Shown: one piece after another, positions 99 to 28,200 of the stretch
How positions within the stretch are numbered: the first letter of the stretch is position 1
Layout of the letters: every line of letters starts with the position of its first letter
Source: Flaccisagitta enflata
Taxonomy: Eukaryota
DNA: 64,000 bases
Reading direction: 5' to 3'
Assembly (NCBI GenBank): GCA_965153355.1
Contig: OZ231126.1
Coordinates: 33,046,001-33,110,000 of the forward strand
Position numbers and translations under genes: made by a program
The notes under the pieces: generated by a model
The model's database searches: none
What the model was told of the DNA's origin: nothing
Seen by the model: the letters and a program-made list of their open reading frames with translations, nothing else

Positions 99-833
99 CA
101 GGCCTTTTTTTAGAGATTTTTTTGGCAGAGCCAACCGGGCTCTCTCCTCACAATTTTACTGAGCCCGACGGCAAAACAGAGAGCCCGGCAAAAAAACAAT
201 ACTGGATGGAAGGCTACCTAAATTGCATTTGGGCGGGCAGGGGTAGTGAGGAAATTTGCTAAAAAACATTTGGGCAGGAGAAGTGACATCAAAATCACTT
301 GTAAATGCAAAAAAAAAAAAAAAAAAAAAAAACAGTGTCACCGACCAATAGAGCAACAGATGGACTAATGAATGGACTGACCAACAGATGGACAGACTGC
401 CATAGGTTATAGAGCAGCGTGCAAACAACTTGAAAAACTGAACATTTTGCTCTATTTTTCAAAAATGTGTAAGCCTCATGACATTATCATTGTTCAATGG
501 TAATTTCTCATAACAGAAATAAATTGGATTCATAGAAAGCAAAAATCATCACAGCCTTTATACCATCAATATAAGACGCATTTAGATTTACAAGAAAAAA
601 AAATGAGATGCTTTACTTGTTGATCAATTCACATTTGACAAGGTCACTATGGTAGAACTTCATTTAAGTCTCTCTCAACTTGTGAATCGGGTTTTCTAAT
701 TATGATTATAAATCTTCCAATCCTTGGTTTCAATTTTGAGAGAGCCAGCCGGGCTCAGAGCCAGCAGAACTAGAGAGCCCGACAGCAAAATTGAGAGCCA
801 CGGGCTCGCGGGCTCGCTCTAAAAAAAGGCCTG
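99..833. mobile_element. Non-autonomous hAT-type MITE
   Basis: TIRs CAGGCCTTTTTTT(T)AGAG ... CTCTAAAAAAAGGCCTG, 8-bp TSD TAAATGAG (91-98, 834-841), and subterminal GAGCCC/GGGCTC motifs. Inserted into a GAGCTAAAT-family repeat. Confidence 0.85.
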
Positions 834-2067
834 TAAATGAGCTAGAATACTTAAAAACACCCTCACAGATGAGCAGCTCTGCTCACTGACATGCTTTTTT
901 ATATCTGCTAGCTTAAACATGTATCAAAATCTTTATTCATTGTGTTTAAAATCAGAAAAAACTGAGCTAAATGAGCTAAAATGCTCAATATCACCCTCGC
1001 AGATGAGCAGCTATGCTTATGAATATGTTTTTTTTATATTTGCAAGCTCAAACAAACAAACACATTCCTTTATTGATCTTACTTAAAATCATAAAATACC
1101 AAAAAAAATAAAATTTGAATTTTTTGAAAATAAATCTTTGAAAATTCATAATGCAAAGAATATTAATCGTAGAGAACTCTGCTTGGCGCCAATGAAAGAA
1201 TTATCAAATTTACTTACCTTATCAATTTCATTGGAGGCCTCAATCAGTCGGATAAGTTCCAAGAATTCCTAATAAGAAAATGAAAACCTTGTTTCTCTTA
1301 AATATGTCAAAAATCTTGGACTGACTTCGACTTTTTTCCCAATAATTAAAATAATTAAAATCAATACTCCAGTTAAAGTCGGGTTTGCTCGAAATGTACT
1401 GTAACTGCGAGCAAAATTTCGACTAATCAACGTTTGTGTCACATTGTCACATTGTTATGACAATTGGTTTTTAGTCGCATGCATGCAACTCCATAATCCG
1501 CTATGTTGGCCGGTCTGTCCATCGGTCAATCTGTCACCTTTTGCTTTTTCGGCGTTTCTTGGTGTTTTTGGTGCTGCTGCCCAAATACCTTTTTCGTCAC
1601 TGCCCCCGCCCACCTGCATGCGACTATAGTAGCCGTGTATCCGGCCTTGTTTTTATGTACTACCACTAAGATTGAATCTCACTGGCTGATATTTCAAACC
1701 CCATCCTCTCCTTGAAAGAAAAAAAAAAAACAATAGGTGAACTGCCATTTCTTTCTAACCCAACACAAGTATTGAGAGTAAAATCGTTTAAACTTCAACC
1801 TGAACATATATACACACAAATATCATTCACACACTGTACACAAACAAAATGTCTTTCTTCTGTTCTTCGCCGTGAGATAAAGTCTGGTTGATCTGGATAA
1901 TTAAATTTGCTAAAATAAAGTCACTAACAGAGATGAAGTTAATGGGTCGTGGAGAGGATCAAGAAAAATGAGCGAGTTTTTTTTTAGGTCTCTTGTAATC
2001 GTCTAGAGACTTCAGAGTCATTGGCGATAGTTCTGTTTTCACTATTGTCGATTTTTTTTCAGTTGCA

Positions 2068-3242
2068 TTAGCGCAGAGAGTTAATGTAAATAGCAAATTC
2101 TTCCGGCGATAAAGCAGCGAGCCGACTCATGTCAACTGCCGGATCTTGTGCAGACGCAGTTGACGTTGAAGACGTGGTGGAGTTATTCTGCATCGTCGAC
2201 GTTGGCCTTGGAGCTGAGGACGCCTCGGCGATGCACGGCCTACCCATTGGCACACCGCCGTTCTTCATGGCTTGCAGCGCCAAGGGCCTTTGATCGAGAT
2301 AGTGACCATAGTTCATCGCAAATTGATTTAAAGACTTTTCGGCGAATTTGAAAATCACGGTATGAGCGCTCCCCGCTTGAAGACACCATATGAGCGAACC
2401 GAAACGAGCGAAGTAACTCTCCACTTGGAGAACGGAAAGAGGAGATCGATCGAGAGTAGACGCTTCCAAGTAATCAATGGCGTCGAGGTCGAGAGCTTCC
2501 GATTGCTTTTTAGAGGTCGGTTCTTCAAGACGATGAGAAGCAGTGCGAGAATTAGATTTGGACCCAAGGCTTTCAATCTGTCGTTGCGTCTTTCTCACTT
2601 GGTCGTCCGTCCGTTTGTCAATTTGTCCCGGCTTATTCAACGCCTCGGCGTTAGATTTGAGACAGGATTGAGCAAATTCCACCAAAGACCGCGCATTTTC
2701 CAAAACACTTCTTTCGGGGCCGGGATAACTCGATGATGGGACGTCTTTCAGCTCGTGAGCGCCCACTTTCCAATTACCATTTCCGGTTTTGCGCAAGACG
2801 TTGCTTCGCGATGAAGAATCTCGAGACCGCGATGGCGTTGAGGAAGAGGAGGAGGAGGAGAAAGAGGAAGATCGACGACGGCTGCGCTGATGGCGATCTT
2901 TGCTGCGGGATCTCGTTTGACGCCGACGACTTTCGCGTTCTCGACTTCTTGAACGAGATCGTGATCTGCTTTCCCTCACACGTTTTGATCCATGATCGTA
3001 ATCGTAGAAACTACTTCTTGAAGTTGATCCATGTTCGTATTCGTAGAAGTTACCCTGCTTGTGAAATTTAGGGATCGTGTGACCGTGTCTGCTTCTAGGC
3101 TGCGAGAGCTCGAAGTGGGAAGGATTGAAATTCTTGGGTTTGTAGTGAGAGTAGAGACATATCTTCCCTTCCTTCAAACGTCGACAATTGCCAAATTGGA
3201 CCAAATTGGGACACGGCCAGTTGTCATGAGAGAAATGGCAGG
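2068..3242 (-). CDS. 3' half of the LTR-interrupted CCCH zinc-finger/RS/RRM-like gene (end of ZF7, ZF8, RS-rich region, RRM-like domain)
   Basis: Open frame continuous with 16440-17589 once the element and one TSD copy are removed (..RIDTGQ|SCHFSHDNWPCPNLVQFGNCRRLKEGKICLYSH..). Contains an RSRSRSRSRERESRRR tract. C-terminal LSVLQVESYFARFGSLIW...VIFKFAEK...GHYLDQRPLAL resembles an RRM by pattern only. Confidence 0.85.
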
Positions 3243-3247
3243 ACTGT

Positions 3248-4160
3248 TGTAAATACGCCCACGAGTTTCAACTGGCACTGTCTATGAGCGTCTATCTGAC
3301 TGACGACTTGTGGTGAAAGAAAGTTGGCCGAATTGGAAAATAGGAAGGCGATCGTCTCGTTTATTCCATAAAAATTTCAACAACTGAAGAGAGGGGGAAA
3401 AATGAAAGGGAAAGTGGGCGTTAATTGTGATCAGCAAACGCAAAAGATAACATGAAATCGAGATAGGACACAATAAAGGACAGAAACAGCACATGACAAC
3501 ATGTTCATCTTCTTCAGAGCCCATGCCACCTGATAATACCTGCCCCTGCCCCGGCCCATCCCATTAAATTCATCCATATCATCCCTATAGTAAGCTGACC
3601 GGGCAAGCGATAAAACCATACTAAAATCCGGCGATAAAAATGCAAAAGGGCAAAAGACAAAAATAACAGACCGGAAACAAGATAAACAACGTTAATAAAA
3701 TCAGAAACACGTCTATAAAAACTTACTTTTAGGCCCACTTTCGTTGGTTTCAACCCACAGTCTGTCGATGTCAAATTAACGTTAATTGTCCGTTCATTAG
3801 TTTATCTGCAATAAAAAGATGAGAGATTATTGAAATTAGTGAATTCCAAGGGCGCATTCAAACGATCATAAAAATCAATCAATCACTTTAAGAAGCGATG
3901 CCATAATTAAATAAAACCAATCAATCCAAAAATTGGATGACACGAAAGACGAGTTACGTATATTTGCCTACGTAGTAAAAACAAATGGCACAAAATCAAG
4001 GCGCAACCATATGGTTACCCATCTAGCGTTCAATATAAAAAATGGCAAGAAACAAAAGACACGGGCATCGAATAGTAGAGAAAGAGAAAAAAGCCAAAAG
4101 CACGCAAAAGAGACAGAAGGCACACACACCTAAGCGACGGACAGACATACATTTCTAACA
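3248..4160 (-). repeat. 3' LTR (913 bp)
   Basis: Direct repeat of 15532-16439; by eye about 3 substitutions and 5 nt of small indels. Minus-strand AATAAA at 3360-3365. Confidence 0.97.
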
Positions 4161-4175
4161 TTCTGCCCCATTTTT
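4161..4175 (-). other. Polypurine tract (PPT) candidate
   Basis: Minus strand reads AAAAATGGGGCAGAA immediately before the TGTTAG start of the 3' LTR. Confidence 0.7.
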
Positions 4176-4979
4176 GGAATTTCACGAATTTCAAAAATCC
4201 GACATCTAGTTTCCAGTCGGGGAAACCCTACTAAAAAACCGATACTACCTTCCTTAAAAAAAAATTTACATAGACACAACCCCCGCCCCTCCCCCCCCGT
4301 CCACCGCCTCTTACATCCCCACCCTAACTATCAACAGATCGACGACTGCACGAATGATGATTCCCGTCCGGAAAGGATCCACCACCAGCAAATTTGCAAC
4401 GATCAATGACGACGCGGATGGAGACGAGGCGGCGACGAGGAGGTTGAGGCGCCCGTTCTGAAAAAAGTTAAAGGGAAGGGGGGGGGGAAAGGGGAACGGG
4501 CCTAGGAGCACTCCAAGCCTGGGATTTGACTTGAGAGTGGAAAAAGATAAGTGGGGGCATACTACTAAAAACATGTCATACGAAAGTATTCGTAATAATG
4601 ACTAAAAAGACCATGTCTAAAACAAACACAACAAAATGTACATGTTCCAAAGAACCAAACAAAACAAGACAAAATTAAATAAATTACTAACTATATAATA
4701 AAAACGAATCTGTTGAATAAAAGAAAAATTAGTAAGCATCATGGAACGACCACATCACCTGCGCCTTCTCCATTACAGAGACGAGCGGGTCATTCCGGCT
4801 CCAACACCTCGTCAACTCGTGGGCGAAAGGCGATGAGTGATGTCGTCGACGGCGACCGCATCGAAAGGCGCAGGTGGTGCAGCCGTCTGAGAGTGTATCC
4901 TCCCCGAAGGGAAGAAAAGGAAAGAGAAAAAATGGGGGCAGATTGATTAGTAAAGTTCTTATCGTACACAGATTCAAAT

Positions 4980-7329
4980 TTACAACAAAAACTCAACTTC
5001 AACCCTTCCCAAACCATGAAACTTACGCGGGCGTTTTTCGCCAGGCCCCGGGGCGGACGTCATTCCCACGCCCCGGGTAGCGCCCCCGACTTGGCCGGCC
5101 TGTCCATCGATGGGATGAGGATGTGAAGGTGGAATACGATCCTCAGCGAATGGCGGCGCTCTCCACGCCATGTTGCAAATTAAGTTGAACAGCAACTGGG
5201 CGTGGCACCAATCAGCGTTTAGCTGGCGGTCTGATTTTTCCAAGACCTGGTTCGATTTTTCTTATTCCCAGGCTTGAGAGCGTCTTTTTGCGACGGGATC
5301 TGCTGACCGACTTTTTCTGCTGGAGAAGACGCAGGAGGTGGAGATGCTGCATCGCAATTCGGCGCCAGTCGAAATTTTGGACGTACAGCGGACGCAGTTT
5401 TAAAATCGACGGCCATAGCCGCCTTTGCGCGTTCCACCGCTTCCTCTTTCTTCTTAGCCTTCATCGCACAGGCCTGCTTCTCCTTTTCAAGCTGCTTCTC
5501 CAGTTCCACGACTCGCTTATTGCCTTTGACCACCTCATTGTCCGCAGCCATTGCTGCTCGACGAGCATCGTCTTTCTCCTTTTGGATATTGCGACGAATT
5601 CGCTCGTCTAAGACTTGACGAGCCGCTTCAACTCGTTGACGCGGCGGAAGCGACGCGAAGAAGTCTTTTGGAAGCCTTGATGCTAAATTCTTCACCACCC
5701 CCAATGGAGCATTTGAGGTCAGTAAAGAGGCTTCTCGTAGCAATGACTCGGCGATGTGGTGTCCATGCGCAGGATCAAAGGCTGGATCCGACGGGGGAGG
5801 CGGGTTCTGCACTTGCTGCAGACCTTGGGCAGACTCGGTTTGCTGACGAGGCGCTACACCAGCTTTAACAGATGCTGAAGCACCGCCAACTAGTTCGCTT
5901 CCTACCGCTGGCTTTTGATGGCTGCGAGTGAAAGGAAGACGCTCCCGCCTGCTGACCAGAGCCTTGAGGTTTAACAGCGGACGCCGAAGCACCGCAAGTA
6001 GAACCTCCCTTGGTTGCTGCTTTGTGCTTCTTCCCAGCTCTCTTGGTCTTCTTCCCCTTTGCTGCTGCTGCCCCAGGCGCCTGATCCAGCTTCTGGGTTG
6101 CTGCCAACGTTGCCGTCGACGAACCGCTTGAAGCTTCTCCTTGGCCTTTGGGCGTTACTGCTGCAGGGGGCGCGCCTGGAGGCGCTTGAAGGGGGCCTTT
6201 GCTTTTGGAATCTGGCCCTTTTTGTTGACTCGGCACATTGCGCGTTTGTGGAGTCTTTCCCCGACGTGATCTCTTCGATTTTTGTGAGGGAGTGACGTCA
6301 CGAGGACCCTGTTGCTGCTGATTTGGGGGATGAACCAATCCAGGGCGCGATTGACGGCTTCCTGATGCTGTAGAGTGAATTGCCGCTGATGTAGCTGCGG
6401 CTGCGTCGAGCACGAATACCGCTGGTGGAATTGCGGAAGCGTCGACGGAAGTTGCACCAGGAGGCTTCGGAGCCGCATTCTTCCTCTTCGTCGCCTGGAC
6501 CATGCGACGAACCTCCTTATCATGCTCCCTCCTTCTCTTATTGCTTTGGATTTTGCGCTCCAGAGTCTCCGAGCCAAGCTCTGTTTGATTAGCCGATGAG
6601 CGCATGAGAGTTTGTTTGTTGCAGCATACCGAAAGTTTTTCAAACTCTTTGAAGAGGAGAGATACTTCGACGTCCGGGCTGATGATACGATACCACCAAC
6701 GCGCCTGCATCCGTTGGTGTTTCTCTTCCGGAGTCGCAGTGTCCACTTCCGGGTCAATGTCTTTCTCCACCACCTCCCCATTCACCAACACCTCCTCCTC
6801 CATTTCCATCCTCCTCCTCCACTCTTGCTCCATCATTGACCAATCTCTCTCTCTCTTCGCCCCCGCTGCGTTGATGTGCAGCTGCAGACGCTTGATCACG
6901 AGACGCTGGGCGCCCGAAATCAAGGCAGAATTGGCGAGGCGATGGGGGCAAATCCGACGATGATGACGCCGCCGCGGAAGTGGTGAATAAGTCCGTCGGC
7001 GGCCGATTGATCGAAATCCGCCTCGAACCTCCATCTCTGATGACCACCAATGGAGGAAGCGACGCGGGATCAACGGCGTTGGATGGCTGTTGACGATTTA
7101 CCAACGCATCATCTTGTTGACGCTTTTTATTCGCCATTTTTGCGTCGACGACGGAACGAAGGTCGCCATTGAAGGCTGCCAGCGCGACAGCCTCCTCCTC
7201 CGCCCCGAACGACGTCGTGGATGCAGATCCCTCTCGAGTTGAGCCGTCGTTGAAGAGTCGATGAAGATCCAAGGACCCGTACGACGTCGACACGTCGGCT
7301 TCAGCCTCGAGACGCTGCTGACGGGACAT
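4980..7329 (-). pseudogene. Accessory ORF3 of the BEL element; frameshifted, basic/low-complexity/coiled-coil, not env-like
   Basis: Overlapping same-strand ORFs 6754-7464, 5865-7073, 5219-5992 and 4980-5243 tile about 2.35 kb of GC-rich coding-like DNA. ATG (MSRQQRL) at 7329 is preceded by an acceptor-like TTCTTACCTTTATCAG ending at 7422. Confidence 0.65.
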
Positions 7330-7682
7330 CTTGACTCCGACGAGCGACTTCAAGATGCAAACTGACTTCGTAGATGGAATGACGTCGTCAGCGGAAGCTT
7401 TGAAATGTTCGTGTTGAAGAACTGATAAAGGTAAGAACGGATTTGGCACAAATAATATGTACATATAGACAGAGCGAATGAATCAGTGTTTTGATGTGTA
7501 AATGGAAATGGACAACATAATTGACAAGAGGAAAGATGAAAGCATGGATAATCAGAACCAAATATGAATAATAACAACTCTTTGTAAATATAACAAGTCA
7601 GAGTATCAATCACTCATATCTATAGTTACTAATGGACAGGCCCATGCGCCTTTTTCTCTCTCTCTCAAAAACTTAGCGTTTT

Positions 7683-9340
7683 TTATGAGTCCAATTCCAG
7701 CCGCACGAGCTTCGTGCGGTCTTTCGTCACGATCTTTCCATCCTGGCGCCGGATGTGAGCCCTCCGGACATGGGCTGACGAACCCTCGACGCCCATGACA
7801 CGTCCTAAACTCCAATTGTGACGAGGCAGCGTTTCGTCCATGACGATGACCATGTCATCCACCGCAAAGTCTTTCTCGGATCTCGACCATTTGCTTCGCG
7901 CGTGAAGAAGCGACAAGTATTCGACCCTCCATGATTTCCAAAATGCATCCACACGCGATTGCGCACGCCTCCATTGAATCTTCGCAGAGTCGGCGTCAGA
8001 GTTGACGCCTTGTTGCACCAGATCTAGAGGGGCATGGCCGGATGTAGATGGATTGAGGATATGATTCGGTGTAAGGGCCTCAGAGTCATTTGGATCATCG
8101 CTGAGCGCTGTCAGAGGACGGCGATTGAGAATTCCTTCAACTTCGACAACGGCAGTGTTGAAGGCGTCGACGTGGAGGATGGCGCCAGTTGAGATGGAAG
8201 CAAGATGGCGCTTAAAGAGAGCGACGATTCTCTCCCACACCCCTCCATAGTGGGGTGTTCTCGGCGTGATAAAGTCCCACCGAAGGCCGCGCCGCTGCAG
8301 TTCGGGAGTTGACGAGCGGTTCCAAGCTTCCATTTCCTTCTTGAGGATGTTATTGGCGCCTACTAGATTCGTCCCGCAATCTGAAGTGAAACGGCGAATT
8401 CCTGGGCGCCTTGCTGCAAAGCGGATGATTGCATTTACCATCGCATCAGCTGACATGTTGAAGAGCAATTCCACATGGACGGCGCGTGACACGAAACAGG
8501 TGAAGACTGCGATCCACACCTTGTGATCAGCACGCCCGTTCATCTTTACTAGGAAATGCCCCATGACATCCAATCCAGTCTCTGCAAAAACAGGTGCAGG
8601 ATTGACGCGATTTGATGGAAGATTGGCCATTTGCTGATTTGCGTTCTTTTTAAAGTTCTTCTGGCATCTGAAGCACGTGTTGACGACGCTCTTGACAGCC
8701 TGAAGACCTTTTGTAATCCACACAAACTGGCGTAATTGGCACAACGTATGCTTTGCACCCGCGTGAAAATCATTGTGATGATAATGACGAATCAATGATT
8801 TCACATTCTCGTCTTTTGGCGGCAAAATGAAGGGAAATTTAGCGTCATGTGCGATGTCGGCGTTTTCCAATCGACTGCCGACGCGAATGATACCGTCGTC
8901 GTCGACGAAAGGATTCAATTTTCGCATCTCTTTGTTTTTGATGATAAAGTCATGACGGCTTTCTGGCTTGAATACTTTTCCCAACTCCAATTGTTCAAAG
9001 ACGTCTGAATAATGATGCCGCTGCATTGACTTGACGAGCTGTTTGCGCGCCTCCTCCAAAACGTCTTGCGTCACTTCCGGTTTAGGAAGGAGATCCTTTG
9101 TTGCTCGTGTCTTCGCCCTTGGATACGCTCTCCACCTTTTGGCTGCGATAAGAACCATGCCGATGATCCGCAACTTGTGCATCCATTTTCCCCGAGAAGC
9201 TGCTGCAAGAAGTATCGCGTCAGCCACTTCTTTCTTTTCACTTTCAGCCACATATAATGCGGCGACTTGTGCAGAAATAGGGCACGTCGCGATGTTCGTC
9301 TTTGGCCATTGATCTTCGGGAAGACGCAAAAATGGGACCG
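7683..9340 (-). pseudogene. pol: BEL Pol: integrase region
   Basis: HHCC (H..FHAG...CFRC), DDE motifs GLDVMG / SDCGTNLVGA / GGVWERIV, and BEL-type C-terminus FWKSWRVEYL...WSLGRV. Joined to RNase H across a frameshift near 9335. Confidence 0.93.
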
Positions 9341-11200
9341 TGATGGAATTGACGCCATTTTTCGGCTTCATGGGCCTGGATGCCTCTGCTGCAGTGGTCC
9401 GCCGGGTTGTTTGACGAATCAACCCAGCGCCACTGTTGAGGATCAGACCCACTATGGATCTTGGAGAGACGATTGGCGAAAAACACAGGCCTCGGTTTTG
9501 CCGGATTGTAAATCATCTTCAGTGCAGATTCAGAATCAGACCAAAATCTGACGACGAGATTGTCCAAGTTGATGGTCCTTCCGACGAAGCGTTTGAGCTG
9601 CACTGCCTTTTCCGCGGATACAATCTCGACGCGTGGAACGCTGTTGTGATGAGAAGCACGTTTTGGATTGAGTGGAATGACGTGAGATTTGGAGGCGATG
9701 AATGAAATGTGAACATCTCCATCTCGGTTGACTTGACGTCGATATGCAACCGCTCCATATCCGCCTTTTGGAGCTGCATCGCAGAAGATCTCAATTGTTA
9801 TTTCCGCAATGTCACTGTTGTCGACGCCGCCATTCCACCAGCGTTCAATTCGGTATTGTTGTAGAAGAGGCCAAGATGAAGTGTAGCGGAAGAAGGATTC
9901 CTCGACGCTCTCTTCCAAGGGCGAATCCCATCCCACTTCCTGTGGACGACAGAGTTGAAGATGTCGTCTGCCGATGTATGCGCTTGGACTCCAAAATCCC
10001 AATGGATCATAAAGTTTGGCTTGCATGGAGACCAATTGACGAGGTGTCTTTGCCCTAAGAGTTTTGAATTCTTCGTCGCAGATGAAAATGAAGACGTCTT
10101 CCGCCGGAAGCCATGAGACGCCCAACACCTTCGTCGGCGCATCATCTTGCTTATCTGAAATGGGGATTGGCACATTTGGATCTCCATCCATCAATTGCCG
10201 CGCATTGCTCTTCCACTTCACAAGGTCCATCCCGCCTTCCGCCATCGCCGCCACTGAATCCACCTTTAGTTGCAGTGCTTCGCCGACCGAATCCCCACTC
10301 CTACTTCGTCGATTTAAAAGCCATAGCGAATAAGATCGTAGACGTTGTAGGGATATTTGGGCCGGATTACTTCAGCATGCTTTCTGACGGTGAAAGATGT
10401 GACGAATGAGCTGGATTGGCTGCCGAAGACGTGTGATAGAAACAGATTCAAAATTGCTTCTCGAAGGGTGCGATCTTTGAACCAAAAGAATCTGAATAAA
10501 TCAGCGTCGTCAGGATGGACGCGGATTTGGTGGAAAAACGCCTTTATGTCACACATAAAGGCGATTTTCCACTGACGAAAACGCATGAGGATGTCCATCA
10601 GGCTATTCATCAAGTTTGGGCCTCCGACGAGCAAATCATTGAGTGAGATCCCGTCGGTCGCCGCACGCGCATCATGGCATACGCGCGTTTTTCCGCGCAA
10701 TTCGACAATATGAAGCGGCAAATACCAGCGCGGCTTCAATGCCGCTGCCGCTGCCGGACGTTGTCAATCTCACCGCCACTCCTGCCTCGAAACTTCTCGA
10801 TTTCACGGAAGACTCTTTCTTTGAAGGCTGGATCACGCTTGAAGCGAAAACGCTGGTTGCCGAGTCGCTTCATCGCAGTCGGTCGTGATTTCACTCTTCT
10901 CAGAATCTCCATGATTTTTTCATGATGAAATTTCCATGTGACGGGAGCAAAGTACTTTTTCACAATTGGGCAAAAATATATCTTTTCCTCTAACGTTTTG
11001 CACGCTCTGACATTTTCGAGGGAATCACCCATCTCCTCTTGCGAGACGATTGATGATGCAAAGTCATGGTAGAAGATGCGCGATGTTGCTGTTGAGGACG
11101 CGATTGTCGAGGATGCGATCGATATTATCGTTGAGGACGCGGTCATCCGTCGCGATAGCGTTGATCGACGCAATATCTCGTCCTCTTTTGCCCGTTTTTC
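9330..11200 (-). pseudogene. pol: BEL Pol: reverse transcriptase and RNase H, disrupted
   Basis: WYLPLH, RVCHDA, SLNDLLVGGPNL, DIKAFFHQI, KVLGVSW, LYDPLG, IFCDA, FWSDS, NPADHCSRG. The Y(I/V)DD position reads TAA-ATC-GAC-GAA (stop at 10314-10316) followed by a frameshift. Confidence 0.92.
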
Positions 11201-11700
11201 CACATACAGTCCAACCGAATAGACATCTAAAGCAAGTCAAAGATCCTGAAGGCCCTCGACGGATTTCTTGAGCGACGGCGGCATCCGCATGCGCCGCTCC
11301 GATGATCATCATCACACCGCCTTCAGCTTCTGGAAATTTTACGCCTTCGATGTGAGGTTGGTCAGATAGGTCGCGGAGAAAAGGAGGAATATCGCGTTCA
11401 CTCGTTAACAAATCACCCACCAATGCGTCGCTGATGTCGACGACATATTCCTCGTCGACCGATTGCATGGTGAATGAAGCGATGAAACGATCCTCAACAA
11501 CATGACTTCCCACAGTAATCACCGTCATTTGCACTGTTTTTGTTGGAATCAGAAGACTGCGAATGACATTGGTACTGATCACGTCGCGATCAGCGCCTGA
11601 GTCGATCATAGCGTAAATCGTCCTCTGCGCGCACCCGAAGAATTGTTTATAATAGTCACTGGAACGATCGGACGGACAACGCCACCAATGAAGAGACGGA
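11064..11700 (-). pseudogene. pol: BEL aspartic protease region
   Basis: YAMIDSGADRDVIS active-site motif near 11610 (frameshift just upstream), MIIGA, and CLFGWTVCG. Confidence 0.85.
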
Positions 11701-11736
11701 CCGCGACGTTGCGCCGCCGCCAGTCATGCCGTGGCG

Positions 11737-14700
11737 TTAGGAGAGATGATTTCCGTTGATCGCTGCCTCCGTCGTCGACGGCTGTTGGTGCTGCTGCAGC
11801 CGCATCCTCTGACTTTTTGAAGGGAGCCAGCGGTACTTTATTTCCCTGCTTATTTTCTCCTTTCTTCTCTTCCTTTTCTTCTTTCTTGTAGGTGCGCCCG
11901 TGGAGAATCGTTGCGTGCCGCTTCTTGCAGGTTGGCAAGTCGGCCTGTTCACGCATCCTTTGGCGTTGTGTCCTGGCAAGAGACAGTGGAAGCAAAGACG
12001 ACGAGACATGATCTTTTGAACTCTCGCGTCCACTTCCAACTCTAACAGCTGATGACAGTTTTCTGTTTGATGCATTCCACTGCAGACATTGCAGCGGTCC
12101 GTCGACTGCGTCTTTTGCTTGCCATTGGTCAAAGCATCTTCATATGATGATGGCGCTTCTTTCTCTGTAGTTGCGACTGCTGCCACTGATGCTGTTTTGC
12201 AGCTGACGCCTTTGTTGCGCTGAATCACTGCCCATGTCTCGATCAAGTTGACCAAATTGTCGAATGAAAACATTTGTCCATTTAGGGCTGCTTCATGTTG
12301 CTTTTCCCAGAATTTATCTGCAAGATGAGGGACCCTCTTGTTGAGGATCTCCTGCAGCAGCTCGTCACGATAGCATTGTTGCACTTCTCCACAGGTCCTC
12401 GCAATCTTCTTTGCCTTTTGCAACCTTGCAGACAAATTGAAATGCCTTGCATGGTCGGCCGACTGGATCTTCGCCTCCGCGACGATTTCGTTGAACAGCG
12501 CCGCAATGTTGCAGCGCCTTGCCATGAAGACGACGTCCATTTTTGCGAAGGCGTCGTCAATCTCTCCTCTTGCTGTCGCTTCAGTTGCATCAATCGTCGC
12601 AGTTTCAATGATCTCTTTTGCCGGACCAGCAAACCACTTAGGCAATTCCAATAAGATGTCCATTTGCGTCAAGCCTTCATGCTTCTCAGCATCTTTAAAC
12701 TTCCTCTTCCACATCATAAAGTCAGTGGACGAAAGCTCCTGCAGAGGCTTCTCAGGTCTTGCTCTCTCCAACGCTTTGAGGCCGACCTCCCTTGCTCGCA
12801 TGAGATCATTGTACGTCGCTCTTTCCAAAAACCTGTCCAGAGCCGGATTGTTGGGCATCTGAACGTGAACTTCCGGTTGACGGACTACTTGGTGATGCTC
12901 CACTTGATGATACGCTGGGGGTTGTTGGACGAAAGCGTATTGACCCCCGACTTTCACCGGAGATCTCTTTTTGGTTTCACGCTCCACCCCACTTCCTCTT
13001 GCTGATTCACTTGTTGTTGACGATCATCTTGATGGAATCGGGGAGCATCAAAATCTTGGCGGACGTACTGTCGTTGTTGTTGTTCTTCTTTTCGCTGTTT
13101 TTCTGCTCTCGCTGCGGCAAGGTCAAAGTCTCTCTGCTGAATCTGCATCTTCAAACTGTCTACTTCTTGCTGCAAACGCTGATTCTGCTGGATAACTTCC
13201 GCTTGAGGCGTTGCTAGAGGCGCTTGCGCTATTTTCGGCGCCTTCGGCTGCAATCCATTCGTTGTCTTCTTAGGAGCGACTTTTCTTCTTTCTTTATCTT
13301 GCAGCTGTTGTGCCAACTTCGCGTCAGCGGCCTCCTGCTTCTGCCTCCTGCGCATTGCCTCCGTTGCATCACCCCCGCTTCCGGCTGTGTTGAAGACCTT
13401 TTCCTCTTGATGGGGAATACCAGTCTCCCTTCTAGCAGAGCCAATCTGCTTCTCGAAGATCACTTCCGGTGCGGTGGGGAGAATCGTTGCCGCTGGGGTT
13501 TGATGATGCTGATCCTGATGCTGTTGCTGTTGTTGAAGCCGTTGCTGCTGCCACTGTTGATGTTGAAGCTGCTGTTGCTGGTCAGGACGCTGTTGCTGCT
13601 CATTCTGCTGCTGCAGTTGACGCTGACGTTGTCCTTGCTGCTGCTGCTGCTCCATCTGTTGCTGCTGCTGCATCGGCTGCTTGACGGACGTTTCCACTGA
13701 CTGCACATGACGTCGCTGTATGTTCGGATTGAACGATCCCGGATTGACGTTTCTGAAGATAGATCGACGGTCTTTTGGCGGATGCTGCGGCTGCTGCTGT
13801 TCCAGCTCAGACAGTTGCCTAAGCTTCACATCTCGCTGCTCTAAAGCCCCACCAATGCCGCCGTCGTTCAGGCTATTCCAGTGCTTCCGTTGCATTTCTG
13901 CCGCATTGTTGAATATTCCCGCTCTTCTATCTTCATCTCGTTGCTGCTGCTGGCGAAAGTTACACATTTTGTCGTATGAGTCCTTGTCTTCTTGTGATGA
14001 GCTTCGTTGTTGGAATCCCAATGGCACCGCGATCGGCGCCTTTGGAGCTGTTGCTGCATCACCACCTTCACCTTCAGCCATCATGCGCAGCCGTTGATCT
14101 GCAAGGCGTTGCTGTCTCTCTTCTTCTGTCTCCTCACTGATGTTCATGCTTTCGACAAAATGGTTGTTTGAAGCTGGAGGATCCACCACCACCGCTGGGA
14201 TTACGGCGGGAGGTTGCTGTTGCTGCTGCAGTTGCTGTTGCATGTTTTCCCCTGCATCGTTTTGTGATTGTTGTTGTTGTTGTTGCTGCTGCTGCTGCTG
14301 ATCGTGTTGTTGCTGTTGCTGCGCCACAGGTTGTGGCGCCGGCTGCAGGTTCTGTTGTTGTTGCTGATCTTGTTGACAAAATTGTTGTAGTTGCTGCAAC
14401 TGCTGCTGCTGCAACAGCTCTTGCTGCTGCCGTTGAGCCGTCGTTTGCTGCTGCTCCTGTGGTCGGTGGAGTTGACGTTGCTGTTGGAGTTGCTGCTGCA
14501 TCTGCAATTGATGCTGCTGCTGTTGCTCCTGTTGCTGTCGCTGCTCCTCCTCCCGTTGTTGCTGCTGCATATCGTTAATCAGCCGACGGCCTTGTCGCAT
14601 TTCCTCCTCCAACTGCCTACCCCATCTGTCTCTCTCAGCACTCCTGTTGACGAAGCGTCGCCTCGCCCTCTCCTGCGGCGTCAATCCGTTGATGATCCCG

Positions 14701-15497
14701 CGGCCTCTTGCGAGAGCGTCGGCGTCGTCGAGATCCGCAAGCATGTCGTCAGCTTGCTGCATTGGAGACGCACGCGCAGGTTCAATTTCCGAGACCAAGT
14801 CTGATACCCATTGATTGACGGCATCTCCTCTTTGGATCGGCGGCAGATTTAGAAATTGGCCGCCAGTCGGAGATTGCGCACCATGTCGCCGGGCCGGAAG
14901 TGGTAGATACTCGGATCCGTCGGGGTTTGGCGAAGACGTTCGCATCCTTGGAGTCGGAGCGCCGTAACATTGTCACGGGGCGGCGGGAGTGTCAGTTGGG
15001 AGACTGTTCCATGAGAATTCGTTGACGGGTCTTTTGCGATTCCCAATGTCGTTGTGCACTGCGTTCACGATGTCGGCGTTGGAAGGAAAACCCTCTGGAT
15101 AGTTTTCACGATCAAAGAAACGCATGGAGTCCCATTCGCTGGATTCGACGCAGCAAAGAAGACGCCGCGAATCGAAGAGGGTCGCCGGCATCGAGTCGAG
15201 CGCCATTTCTCTTGCATACGATATGAAGTCGTAGACCATGTCCCGAAGGCCGTGTCGAGCGCCATCTGATTCACAGGCGGCGCCGTCGGTCACTGCCCCT
15301 TCGGCGCAAGTAGAGACGGCGTCGAAGAGGCGCCGGCATCCTTCCATTTCCGCAGTGATGTCGTTCTTCATTGCGCGCAAACGGTTCGACCTCGGACACT
15401 GATTCAAACCGAAATGAGATACACGAGATGACGTTGGGCGGTCGAGACGGTGTCGTCGTTGCGCGGCTGCCATTGTCCAATTTTTCTGGAGGTCCAT
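11737..15497 (-). pseudogene. gag: BEL Gag with long polyQ N-terminal region and three Cys/His knuckles, frameshifted
   Basis: ORFs 14973-15497, 12954-14945 (Q-rich) and 11737-12987. Knuckles CNVCSGMHQTENC, CFHCLLPGHNAKGC and a frameshifted C..CKKRHATILH. Confidence 0.88.
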
Positions 15498-15531
15498 GAA
15501 AAGAATCGAGTCGTTTTTTAAATTGTTGAAA

Positions 15532-16439
15532 TGTAATTACGCCCACGAGTTTCAACTGGCACTGTCTATGAGCGTCTATCTGACTGACGACTTGTGGTGA
15601 AAGAAAGTTGGCCGATTGGAAAATAGGAAGGCGATCGTCTCGTTTATTCCATAAAAATTTCAACAACTGAAGAGAGGGGGAAAAATGAAAGGGAAAGTGG
15701 GCGTTAATTGTGATCAGCAAACGCAAAAGATAACATGAAATCGAGATAGGACACAATAAAGGACAGAAACAGCACATGACAACATGTTCATCTTCTTCAG
15801 AGCCCATGCCACCTGATAATACCTGCCCCTGCCCCGGCCCATCCCATTAAATTCATCCATATCATCCCTATAGTAAGCTGACCGGGCAAGCGATAAAACC
15901 ATACTAAAATCCGGCGATAAAAATGCAAAAGGGCAAAAGACAAAAATAACAGACCGGAAACAAGAAACAACGTTAATAAAATCAGAAACACGTCTATAAA
16001 AACTTACTTTTAGGCCCACTTTCGTTGGTTTCAACCCACAGTCTGTCGATGTCAAATTAACGTTAATTGTCCGTTCATTAGTTTATCTGCAATAAAAAGA
16101 TGAGAGATTATTGAAATTAGTGAATTCCAAGGGCGCATTCAAACGATCATAAAAATCAATCAATCACTTTAAGAAGCGATGCCATAATTAAATAAAACCA
16201 ATCAATCCAAAATTGGATGATACGAAAGACGAGTTACGTATATTTGCCTACGTAGCAAAAACAAATGGCACAAATCAAGGCGCAACCATATGGTTACCCA
16301 TCTAGCGTTCAATATAAAAAATGGCAAGAAACAAAAGACACGGGCATCGAATAGTAGAGAAAGAGAAAAAAGCCAAAAGCACGCAAAAGAGACAGAAGGC
16401 ACACACACCTAAGCGACGGACAGACATACATTTCTAACA
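15532..16439 (-). repeat. 5' LTR (908 bp)
   Basis: TGTAATTAC...TTTCTAACA, a direct repeat of 3248-4160. Confidence 0.97.
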
Positions 16440-17589
16440 ACTGTCCTGTGTCGATCCTCGGGCATCTGCCTTTGTTCTCTAAATGCTTGCAAGGAGCCGC
16501 TCTGGCCGTAGGATCCCTGGGTGGGGCTCGGGGCTGGGGCGTGGGTGGAGGATGTATCGGCTTGTTGTGATCGATTACTTCTCTCTCTGCGGGATTAGGA
16601 TGTCGAGGGGCGTTTCCCTCGTGAGGATAATGACACCTTTTGCCCAATTCCAGACGATAACATTTGCCATCTTTGGCCAAATTGGGACAAGCGTAATCTT
16701 CGTGGGAAAAGAAGCAATCGATACCATTGTCGATTTTGATACATCTTCCTTTTGCTTCCAGATATTTGCAAGGCAGTCTAACTTTTGGCTTATCGCCTTG
16801 ACGCAATTCCTCTGGTCCATGAGCAAATGAGCATTTGTAAGAAAACCTTTCTTCGCCGCGTGGGCACGTCAATCCATTCTCCCAATGGTAACACATGGTG
16901 GTCTTGTAATTGTTCCTGCCATACTCGGACAAATCATCGACGCCGTGAGCATACGTGCAATCGTTGTCGCCTTTGCAATATCCAGTTTCCATAAACGCGA
17001 CACAAAGACGAATCTTGTGAGTAGAAAATCTGCCATCTTGTTGCTTTTGGCTTTTTGGAGTAAATTGTTGATGGGGCTGGCGCTTGTGAGTAGTGAACCC
17101 CCACTTGTCGGTACACAAAGGCTGGGATTGGGACTTCTTACCAGAGTAGCTGTAGTAACCATTTTTGATATTCAAAATTCTCTCGCCTTTTCGAGGCCGA
17201 TCGCTTTTGGGAACTTCCATTTTCGGTCGCAATTCTTTTTCTCCGTGAGCTTTGAGACACGCTTGTCGGTTTGGGCACGAGATGCCTTCCTTCCAGTAAC
17301 CGCAAAGCGAGGTTTTGTAGCGCATCCAACTGGCCAGCGTGAGATCTTTTGGTCCGTGAGCAAATTCACAAACCGAGGCGTCCAAGGGGCATTTCCCTTC
17401 CGCCATAAAAATGTTGCACAACGCAATTTTTCCGCTGTCGAGCAAATTGGCGAAATCTTCCGCCGTTTCGAGATCCTCGGCGCGGGCGGGTTTAGGATCT
17501 GGTTTCTCGTCGTCGTCGGCGGAAGGAGAAGCGTCGACTTTAGACGGCTCTTTACCCTCTTCATCACTCGAAATCTCGTCGTAATCCAT
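16440..17589 (-). CDS. 5' half of the LTR-interrupted multi-CCCH zinc-finger gene (TIS11/ZFP36-like tandem fingers)
   Basis: ATG (MDYDEISSD) at 17589. Fingers KIALC..C..CEFAHG, YKTSLC..CLKAHG, HKIRLC..CTYAHG, YKTTMC..CSFAHG, PCKYLEAKGRC..CFFSH, CPNLAKDGKC..CHYPH, and the start of a 7th cut by the TSD. Confidence 0.9.
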
Positions 17590-18284
17590 GATACGAATGA
17601 AGAAAAATTTACCGCACAAAAACACGCGTTGATTGGAGGAAAGTTTATGCAAATCAGAAGATAAAAGTTTTTGTTTTTTAGTTTTTGTTTTTTCTACGTT
17701 TTAAAAGGAGAGAAAGTTTTTTTTCTTTTTTCATTAAGAAGCAAATTTTACAATATTGATTTTTTTCCATGAGGAGAGGGAAAAGTTCTATTTTGTTCAA
17801 CAAGTTTATTTATCTTTTGTCGAGCATTTTGATTCGTGTCACAAAATTACTATTAGTGAGTCTATTGAAAGCTTCTTTTTCGAAATTGATAATCGAGTTT
17901 ACAGTTTTGGGCTTGATTCCAGAGCAACTTGGCCGAATTGCCGAAGCTGAAAGCAGAGCGCTAAAAATGTTTATTGTTTAATGTTTAATTAGGATTTTGT
18001 TTTTAACAGTCACAGATTAAAACGTTTTTTATTTCACTGAATCTTAAAATAAAGATTGTGTCAAAAGAGAAAATATTTGCGATATGGCGGCAAATTGTTT
18101 CAATTCGTTGATAACAAATAAGAAATGCGGGGTTACAACATCGTCATGGACGTGAGGGCAGGGGCATACGACCCCCTTTTACACCCCCTGCCACGCATAC
18201 TCGTCGCACACAAATCTGCCTAACACAAAACCAACAGACAAAAAAAAAAAGACTAACTAAAGAGGCAGACAAACGAAACAGACA

Positions 18285-19510
18285 AACAAAGCAAACAAAC
18301 AAAACACACAAACAAAAGACAGACACACAAAGCAGACAGACACACAAAGCAGACAGACACACAAAACAGACAGACACACAAAACAGACAGACACACAAAA
18401 CAGACAGACACACAAAACAGACAGACACACAAAACAGACAGACACACAAAACAGACAGACACACAACACAGACAGACACACAACACAGACAGACACACAA
18501 AACAGATGGACACACAAAACAGATGGACACACAAAACAGATGGACACACAAAACAGATGGACACACAAAACAGATGGACACACAAAACAGATGGACACAC
18601 AAAACAGATGGACACACAAAACAGATGGACACACAAAACAGACGGCCACACAAAACAGACGGACACACAAAACAGATGAACACACAAAACAGACGGACAC
18701 ACAAAACAGACGGACACACAAAACAGACGGACACACAAAACAGACGGACACACAAAACAGACGGACACACAAAACAGACGGACACACAAATCTGAAGGAC
18801 ACACAAAACTGACGGACACACAAAACAGATGGACACACAAAACAGACAGAAAGGCAAAACAGACAGACACGCAAAACAGACAGACACACAAAACAGACAG
18901 ACAGGCAAAACAGACAGACACGCAAAACAGACAGACACGCAAAACTGACAGACACGCAAAACTGACAGACACGCAAAACTGACAGACACGCAAAACTGAC
19001 AGACACACAAAACAGACGGCCAGACACACAAAACAGACGGCCAGACACACAAGACAGACAGCCAGACACACAAGACAGACAGACACAAGACAGACACACG
19101 ACAGACAGACACACAAGGCAGACAGACACACAAAACAGATAGACACACAAAACAGATGGACACACAAAACAGACACACAAAACAGACGGACACACAAAAC
19201 ACGGACACACATAACAGACGGACACACAAAACAGACGGACACACAAAACAGACGGACACACAAAACAGACGGACACACAAAACAGACAGACACACAAAAC
19301 AGACAGACACACAAAACAGACAGACACACAAAAGAGACGGACACACAAAACTGACGGACACACAAAACTGACGGACACACAAAACTGACGGACACACAAA
19401 ACAGACGGACACACAAAACAGACGGACACACAAAACAGACGGACACAAAACAGAAGGACACGCAAAACAGACGGACGCACAAAACAGACGGACGCACAAA
19501 ATAGACGGAC
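18285..19510. repeat. 17-bp minisatellite (ACACACAAAACAGAC[A/G]G variants)
   Basis: About 70 tandem units with blocks of variants (CAGACAG, CAGATGG, CAGACGG, CTGACAG); followed by (CA)n at about 19740-19820. Confidence 0.95.

Positions 19511-21092: not shown

Positions 21093-28200
<7,108 letters not shown>

Follow-up and report, generated by a model that had tools for sequence, protein, structure and literature searches.

Insertional alleles caused by long terminal repeat (LTR) retrotransposons are textbook cases in animals and plants, such as the copia insertion in Drosophila white-apricot. Retrotransposon insertion polymorphisms in genes are widely reported. The stretch of DNA analysed here (the window) comprises 64,000 nt of the Flaccisagitta enflata assembly GCA_965153355.1 (contig OZ231126.1, positions 33,046,001 to 33,110,000). 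A 13,192-nt LTR element at 3248-16439 on the minus strand interrupts a minus-strand open reading frame (ORF) that encodes a protein with Cys-Cys-Cys-His (CCCH) zinc fingers. As in white-apricot-type alleles, a co-oriented LTR element lies in a gene, a target duplication is present, an intact empty allele appears to exist elsewhere in the population, and a truncated transcript ending in the 5' LTR would be expected. Unlike those alleles, this insertion interrupts the coding sequence of a gene without introns, in a marine planktonic animal from the wild, and is known from sequence alone. The case is a tidy instance of a well-known phenomenon, likely polymorphic, and not a new phenomenon. The explanation we prefer, with a probability of about 0.8, is a young insertion of a pol-defective copy from a very abundant BEL/Pao family into a conserved, expressed gene, where it forms a segregating null allele.

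The element is bounded by direct LTRs with TG..CA ends and flanked by a short target-site duplication (Table 1). Global alignment of the two LTRs gave 99.1% identity over 913 columns. Eight columns differed, which correspond to three substitutions and four indel events (a single T in a T run three times, and TA once). When the element and one ACTGT copy were removed, the minus-strand segments 17589..16440 and 3242..2068 joined into 2325 nt, which read through 774 codons to the terminal stop without interruption. As a control, 13 offsets were tried at the junction between the two gene halves. The frame was kept at four of the 13 offsets, and only precise excision and one variant longer by 9 nt left the terminal stop alone. 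Residue 383 is the last before the junction, which separates the second Cys of finger 7 (residues 367-389) from the third. All coding pieces of the element are on the same strand as the host gene. Within the 64-kb window, neither a further copy of the element nor a solo LTR was found. The original prediction had described this stop-free 2325-nt join, two halves without lesions, a finger 7 completed by the junction and parallel to finger 5, and an element co-oriented with the gene, and all of these were confirmed. Its figure of about 1% for the LTR difference also agrees with the eight differing columns in 913, of which only three are substitutions.

It could be argued that a repeat copy was misplaced into the gene during assembly, since the extreme abundance of the family makes its repeats hard to assemble and the filled site was seen in the assembly and not shown in an independent run. 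We regard this as very improbable, because a mis-join would not create an exact 5-bp duplication and complete TG..CA LTRs, nor would precise excision then restore a conserved frame together with a zinc finger.

Other samples were used to investigate the site. In a run search with the 5' part of the gene, the word share was 0.86 and 0.67 for X1 and X3, two DNA runs of the same organism, X1 being the probable source run, 0.57-0.68 for marine metagenomes, and 0.50 for the marine metatranscriptome X7. Region 1800-18000 was compared with X3, X7, the metagenome X2, and X22, a raw polyA RNA run of the organism of X1 and X3. Every flank variant listed, six in 2292-3054 and six in 16440-17372, set X3 apart from the window at full depth, and X3 therefore represents another haplotype or individual. 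Record 12 of X3 (254 nt, depth 225) fits 16440-16680 and has 13 letters beyond 16440, and record 11 (235 nt, depth 367) matches 3025-3247, with 12 letters left over beyond 3247. These overhangs do not fit the LTR, and the matches end exactly at the outer edges of both ACTGT copies, whereas a contig running into the LTR would have gone on matching. The overhangs probably represent the opposite flank in each case. The sum of 12 + 5 + 13 is 30, which equals the k-1 overlap also present between X3 records 10/11 and 13/14, k being the word length, and is what is expected of two neighbouring contigs that span an empty site. In X3, X2 and X7, the distance from variant 16480 to the end of the fitted piece is 41 letters each time, so the pieces from all three data sets stop at 16440. 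Polymorphism of the insertion, which had been put forward as a possibility, is very probable, as judged from these match ends: contig matches from three other data sets stop at 16440, and those from X3 also stop at 3247. A protein search for a fragment crossing the empty site, made with the 137 residues adjoining the junction, returned 15 candidates, none of them significant. A protein-pattern scan of metagenome contigs with the 5' half gave 104 pattern matches, none of which was confirmed, and an exact 31-nt scan with the left flank gave 0 matches.

The two halves of the gene have uninterrupted relatives. Protein P0001 (985 aa) aligned to residues 54-774 of the joined protein with an E value of 2e-68. 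The alignment runs through both halves, which are therefore one gene, and covers the fingers, the Arg/Ser (RS) tract, the conserved helical stretch, the C-terminal domain and a C-terminal end of identical style. A search of 1.84 billion representatives with the C-terminal 250 aa found 28 relatives, of which 17 had E values of 1e-10 or lower. Among the 28 are the full-length proteins P0009 (948 aa), P0001 and P0030 (785 aa). P0006, a fragment from another source, was identical to the C-terminal part of the host protein at 241 of 242 positions, and other fragments were 59-67% identical. The number of fingers varies among the relatives, with eight in the host protein and 10 in P0001. No named relative was found in the protein-library searches, in libraries that carry few or no names.

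Twelve coding differences between X3 and the window were listed, seven of them synonymous and five conservative replacements (E624D, T617S, H501Q, Y204F and H173Q); one further X3 difference, in 3025-3247, was counted but lies outside the listed 12. Over 2104 covered coding sites the synonymous difference (pS) was 0.015 and the nonsynonymous difference (pN) 0.0031. The resulting pN/pS of 0.20 (binomial P of 0.007 for so few replacements) shows that the host gene is under purifying selection in the species. Contigs of the X7 metatranscriptome were placed on 1866-2828, 16548-17521 and 17564-18000 with depths of 3-11 and ran colinear with the DNA, which shows transcription of both halves in wild populations and an unspliced coding region there. 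With colinear relatives, constraint and wild RNA, the host gene is real and functional.

Two observations concern the N-terminal coding region. Record 7 of X2, a metagenome contig covering 17138-17581, contains 18 extra letters in the acidic N-terminal coding region and is an in-frame length variant. One X7 RNA contig leaves the window at 17525 and continues for 138 unlike letters with the frame kept; possible sources are a variant N-terminus, a close paralogue and a sibling species.

The substitution divergence between the LTRs was 0.33% (3 in 908 nt), well below the synonymous divergence of 1.5% between the window haplotype and X3. The insertion is therefore younger than the common ancestor of the two haplotypes, and its age fits that of a segregating allele. 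The recent origin suggested in the original prediction is supported by this comparison. An old and fixed insertion, with the two halves being remnants of a dead gene, would agree with the pol of the copy being broken in four places and with the stop in the gag-side frame. Neither half of the gene carries a lesion, however, and the low LTR divergence, the matches in three other data sets that stop at the boundary without entering the LTR, the wild-sample RNA over both halves and the pN/pS of 0.20 all speak against it, so that we give this explanation hardly any weight.

Several points weigh against the explanation preferred here. The letters of the 12- and 13-nt overhangs were not read, so the empty site is deduced and not read directly. 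No joint between 3247 and 16440 was present among the 15 of 525 joints listed, all of which were high-depth X3 repeat joints. The filled allele is known from the assembly and its target duplication alone. In the X22 polyA RNA (about 6% of the run, 12.2 million records) 0 reads were placed on the gene, so that the gene is hardly expressed, or not at all, in that sample, and the loss of function has no shown consequence. Furthermore, a strongly deleterious allele in a large population would be expected to carry fewer than three LTR substitutions. The three observed may derive from copy-to-copy polishing errors, from template switching at insertion or from a weakly selected gene.

Some of these points agree better with a reading that overlaps with the preferred one, in which a real and polymorphic insertion is close to neutral. 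In that case the gene would be dispensable, redundant with a paralogue elsewhere in the genome or used at a narrow stage, and the allele would drift instead of being a harmful knockout. The time the LTRs have had for three substitutions and the X22 RNA without reads on the gene fit this reading, as do the in-frame departure of the X7 contig at 17525, which could be a close paralogue or a variant allele, and the varying finger number (8 here, 10 in P0001). On the other side, the pN/pS shows that constraint continues in the species, 28 relatives share a conserved C-terminal domain, no second copy of the gene is present within the 64-kb window, and the X3 flank depth of 102-327 gives no obvious sign of duplication. 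Near-neutrality is considered unlikely.

According to the preferred explanation, a pol-defective copy of an abundant and recently active BEL/Pao family would have inserted into the single coding exon of the gene and duplicated 5 bp. Because the copy's own pol is broken, mobilisation in trans by intact members, such as the source of the Pol protein P0033, is most likely. The resulting allele would lack finger 8, the RS tract and the domain with the fold of an RNA recognition motif (RRM), along with the zinc-binding half of finger 7, and would most simply be null. At best it would encode fingers 1-6 and 43 LTR residues. The uninterrupted allele is apparently carried by other samples of the species and by wild populations, and because these appear uninterrupted, a polymorphic null is favoured over a fixed loss of the gene.

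Two new products of the interrupted allele had been proposed in the original prediction, namely six fingers fused to a hydrophobic LTR-encoded tail and a transcript driven by the 3' LTR that covers finger 8, the RS tract and the RRM. As a reading frame the first is possible. The fused frame contains 383 host residues (fingers 1-6 plus the first two Cys of finger 7) followed by 43 LTR-encoded residues, ends at the stop 16309-16311, and is followed deeper in the 5' LTR by AATAAA at 15648. The tail is hydrophobic, with a mean Kyte-Doolittle value of 1.37. The frame, stop and hydrophobicity thus agree with the proposal, and RNA support was absent from X7 and X22: the RNA depth was zero in the LTR bins next to both junctions, and no gene-to-LTR contig or read was found, with X22 being uninformative on chimeric transcripts, since it gave only five partial reads, all in the Gln-rich region of the element. 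The second product did not hold up. Eight codons upstream of the junction, a stop closes the frame that leads into the 3' half. The earliest in-frame Met is at joined residue 693, already within the RRM-fold domain, so that finger 8, the RS tract and the RRM could not be translated by ordinary initiation. A neomorphic allele that makes both products is helped by the co-orientation of the element and the gene and by the fused frame, whose transcript could end at the AATAAA. The silent junction bins, the 0 X22 reads on the gene and the closed frame of the 3' part make it improbable.

Table 1. Coordinates of the host gene, the inserted element and its target-site duplication in the window.
Feature	Coordinates	Strand	Basis
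Host gene 5' part: 383 codons + 1 nt; start codon 17589-17587, acidic N-terminus, fingers 1-6, first two Cys of finger 7	16440-17589	-	ORF, Pfam zf-CCCH and zf-CCCH_UNK
Host gene 3' part: remainder of finger 7, all of finger 8, RS tract, a helical region and a C-terminal helix (both conserved) on either side of the RRM-fold domain; stop 2068-2070	2068-3242	-	ORF, relatives, model
Target-site duplication ACTGT beside 5' LTR	16440-16444	.	Sequence read
5' LTR: 908 nt, TG..CA	15532-16439	-	Repeat comparison and alignment
Element 5' region: 861-codon frame interrupted by one stop (187 aa, followed by a 672-aa Gln-rich ORF)	12954-15536	-	ORF list; no Pfam match
gag-like ORF: 428 aa, two C-x2-C-x4-H-x4-C knuckles	11737-13023	-	Read from translation; no Pfam match
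pol: protease, reverse transcriptase, RNase H/Pao region, integrase; five pieces in three frames	7686-11609	-	tblastn with P0033, Pfam
pol piece, P0033 residues 1-176	11609-11082	-	tblastn
pol piece, P0033 residues 178-274	11080-10790	-	tblastn
pol piece, P0033 residues 294-437	10736-10305	-	tblastn
pol piece, P0033 residues 439-764	10305-9328	-	tblastn
pol piece, P0033 residues 764-1312	9332-7686	-	tblastn
Three ORFs (242, 410, 311 aa) between integrase and 3' LTR	5219-7482	-	Basic, low-complexity; no Pfam match
3' LTR: 913 nt, TG..CA, preceded by purine-rich tract	3248-4160	-	Repeat comparison and alignment
Target-site duplication ACTGT beside 3' LTR	3243-3247	.	Sequence read

The element can be assigned to BEL/Pao by its Pfam signatures, which serve as a proxy for a reverse transcriptase (RT) phylogeny. 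Frame 9244-10371 matched Peptidase_A17 ('Pao retrotransposon peptidase') with an E value of 3e-29, and frame 7683-9512 matched Integrase_H2C2 (3.2e-09), rve and DUF5641 (1.3e-19). The matches to RVT_1 and to the aspartyl protease family (Asp_protease) were weak and below the cut-offs. A protein search with the RT/RNase H piece found 320 proteins at E values of at most 0.001 among 2156 candidates, and PF05380 was present in 120 of 120 relatives among the matches listed. The best match was P0033 (1312 aa, from a cluster of 113 members), which was 97% identical, and named relatives at about 30-35% identity came from molluscs, echinoderms, barnacles, insects, fishes and cnidarians. The BEL/Pao identity given in the original prediction is supported by Peptidase_A17, DUF5641, Integrase_H2C2 and the PF05380-carrying relatives.

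The pol region is colinear with P0033, has the Pao-type order protease-RT-RNase H-integrase, and consists of pieces that are 95-99% identical to that protein in tblastn. Frame changes relative to P0033 occur near 11081, between 10790 and 10736, near 10305 and near 9330. Because of these four changes, the copy as assembled would be unable to make Pol. With one additional stop in the 861-codon frame, it does not have the intact coding capacity of an autonomous copy, and this lost autonomy has no bearing on its membership of the BEL/Pao family.

The named BEL/Pao families, Pao, BEL, roo and their relatives, share with this element TG..CA LTRs, a 5-bp duplication, a CCHC gag, the pol order and the Peptidase_A17, DUF5641 and Integrase_H2C2 domains. 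In contrast to them, the element is long (13.2 kb), has an 861-codon Gln-rich frame upstream of gag, contains about 3.5 kb downstream of the integrase with three ORFs outside any Pfam family, and is present here as a copy unable to make Pol. No Pfam family was found for the Gln-rich ORF, the gag, the 187-aa ORF or the three 3' ORFs. The element is unusual only in its length and extra ORFs.

The element family is extremely abundant. In X3, the summed word depth of the element bins was 159,456-681,597, compared with 102-327 in five of six flank bins; the sixth flank bin, 16407-16947, had a depth of 1246 and includes 33 nt of LTR. In X2, the summed word depth was 745-4849 for the element and 4.5-8.9 for the flanks. 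The depth was roughly even across the whole 13 kb. Among the X3 contigs placed on the region, 15,599 of 31,140 were at least 99% like this copy. A rough reading of these values, in which summed word depth is not copy number by the method's own warning, gives a family size on the order of a thousand copies. The Gln-rich 861-codon frame had a depth as high as elsewhere in the element and hence belongs to the usual structure of the family. The depth of the three 3' ORFs was as high as that of the rest of the element. Neither the abundance of the family nor the broken pol of this copy had been noticed in the original prediction.

No RNA matches of at least 95% were found on the element outside its Gln-rich part, either in the X7 metatranscriptome or in the 12.2 million X22 polyA reads. 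The X7 and X22 matches inside 12079-14783 were rejected as element RNA, as they continue into unlike sequence, and were treated as Gln-repeat look-alikes from other genes. Despite its very high DNA depth, the family appears to be transcriptionally silent in the X7 and X22 samples.

The joined host protein contains eight CCCH fingers, of which fingers 5, 6, 7 and 8 are spaced C-x8-C-x8-C-x3-H. Residues 189-261 matched tandem fingers of the TTP/TIS11 (ZFP36) type in PDB, with E values of 2.4e-08, 5.3e-07 and 1.7e-05 for 9y10, tristetraprolin 1m9o and 1rgo, respectively, and a lead-in of the YKT-x-x-C style is shared as well. In TTP-type tandems, two C-x8-C-x5-C-x3-H fingers lie about 18 residues apart. 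Finger 3 has exactly this spacing, whereas finger 4 is C-x8-C-x10-C-x3-H, with a middle spacer of 10 residues. The host protein also differs from TTP/TIS11 in having eight fingers, four of them with the C-x8-C-x8-C-x3-H spacing, together with an RS tract and a C-terminal RRM fold.

The RS tract has 25 Ser and 22 Arg in joined residues ~470-535. A Pfam match to 'Transformer' on the 3' half (E value 0.0011, below the cut-off) was rejected, as it reflects Arg/Ser composition only. No Pfam RRM match was found in the 3' half, even at E values up to 1. An AlphaFold2 model of the last 150 residues was built from the 24-sequence alignment A1. Its predicted local distance difference test (pLDDT) score was 88-98 over residues 11-100, and its topology was beta-alpha-beta-beta-alpha-beta plus a hairpin. 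The PDB matches listed by Foldseek were RRM domains or RRM-containing chains and complexes, with Hrp48 RRM1 as the best (5.7e-04) and Nop15, ALY and U1A also present, and the target template modelling (TM) scores were 0.6-0.75 for single-domain RRM chains. The family profile compared with PDB sequences reached E values of only 0.04-0.3, to the RRMs of Musashi and DAZAP1. The C-terminal model has the RRM fold, and no sequence membership by Pfam RRM_1 or the RNP1-RNP2 consensus was found. The RRM of the original prediction is thus upheld at the level of fold by AlphaFold2 and Foldseek but not as a member of the sequence family, given that no Pfam RRM match was obtained.

CCCH fingers, RRM-type domains and RS tracts occur together in U2AF35/ZRSR2, RBM22 and RBM26/27. 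The host protein resembles these in having the same three kinds of module in one RNA-binding protein, and it differs from them in the order and number of modules, with eight fingers, then the RS tract, then the RRM fold, in the lack of a Pfam RRM match, and in its weak sequence likeness to solved RRMs. It lacks the layout of SR splicing factors, in which one or more N-terminal RRMs are followed by a C-terminal RS domain; here the RS tract precedes the RRM fold and the N-terminus consists of fingers. The host protein is a lineage-restricted combination of known modules.

Other features were observed in the window. At 18223-19510, about 630 nt upstream of the host start codon, a 17-nt unit ACACAAAACAGACAGAC is repeated about 76 times with 89% matches. 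This repeat gives open frames of 400-475 codons in several frames, which are not genes. At 17648-17830, an X3 contig had six differences in 183 nt and a depth of 94.8, compared with 195-275 in its neighbours; it seems to represent one haplotype of an upstream region with high heterozygosity. An open frame at 26957-27577 on the plus strand had a partial Fibrinogen_C match (Pfam, 2.3e-08) and is probably an exon of a fibrinogen-related gene.

A wider interpretation, which we offer tentatively and with the odds against it, is that the insertion is one event of an ongoing burst. An unusually large BEL/Pao family, with about a thousand near-identical 13-kb copies carrying a Gln-rich 5' frame and three extra 3' ORFs, would be leaving null alleles of constrained genes segregating in nature, and the product of the disrupted gene, a lineage-restricted protein with eight fingers, TTP-like features, an RS tract and an RRM fold, could be a stage-specific (e.g. 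germline or embryonic) mRNA regulator. If this were true, a natural knockout of the stage-specific regulator could be followed in the wild. The locus provides a null allele that arose naturally and is precisely defined, in a gene for a lineage-restricted RNA-binding protein that is still uncharacterised. It also marks a retrotransposon family that is seemingly active, currently or very recently, in a marine planktonic animal. With the allele frequency and the activity of the family measured, the locus could become a small case study of the mutational load imposed by transposable elements in very large populations.

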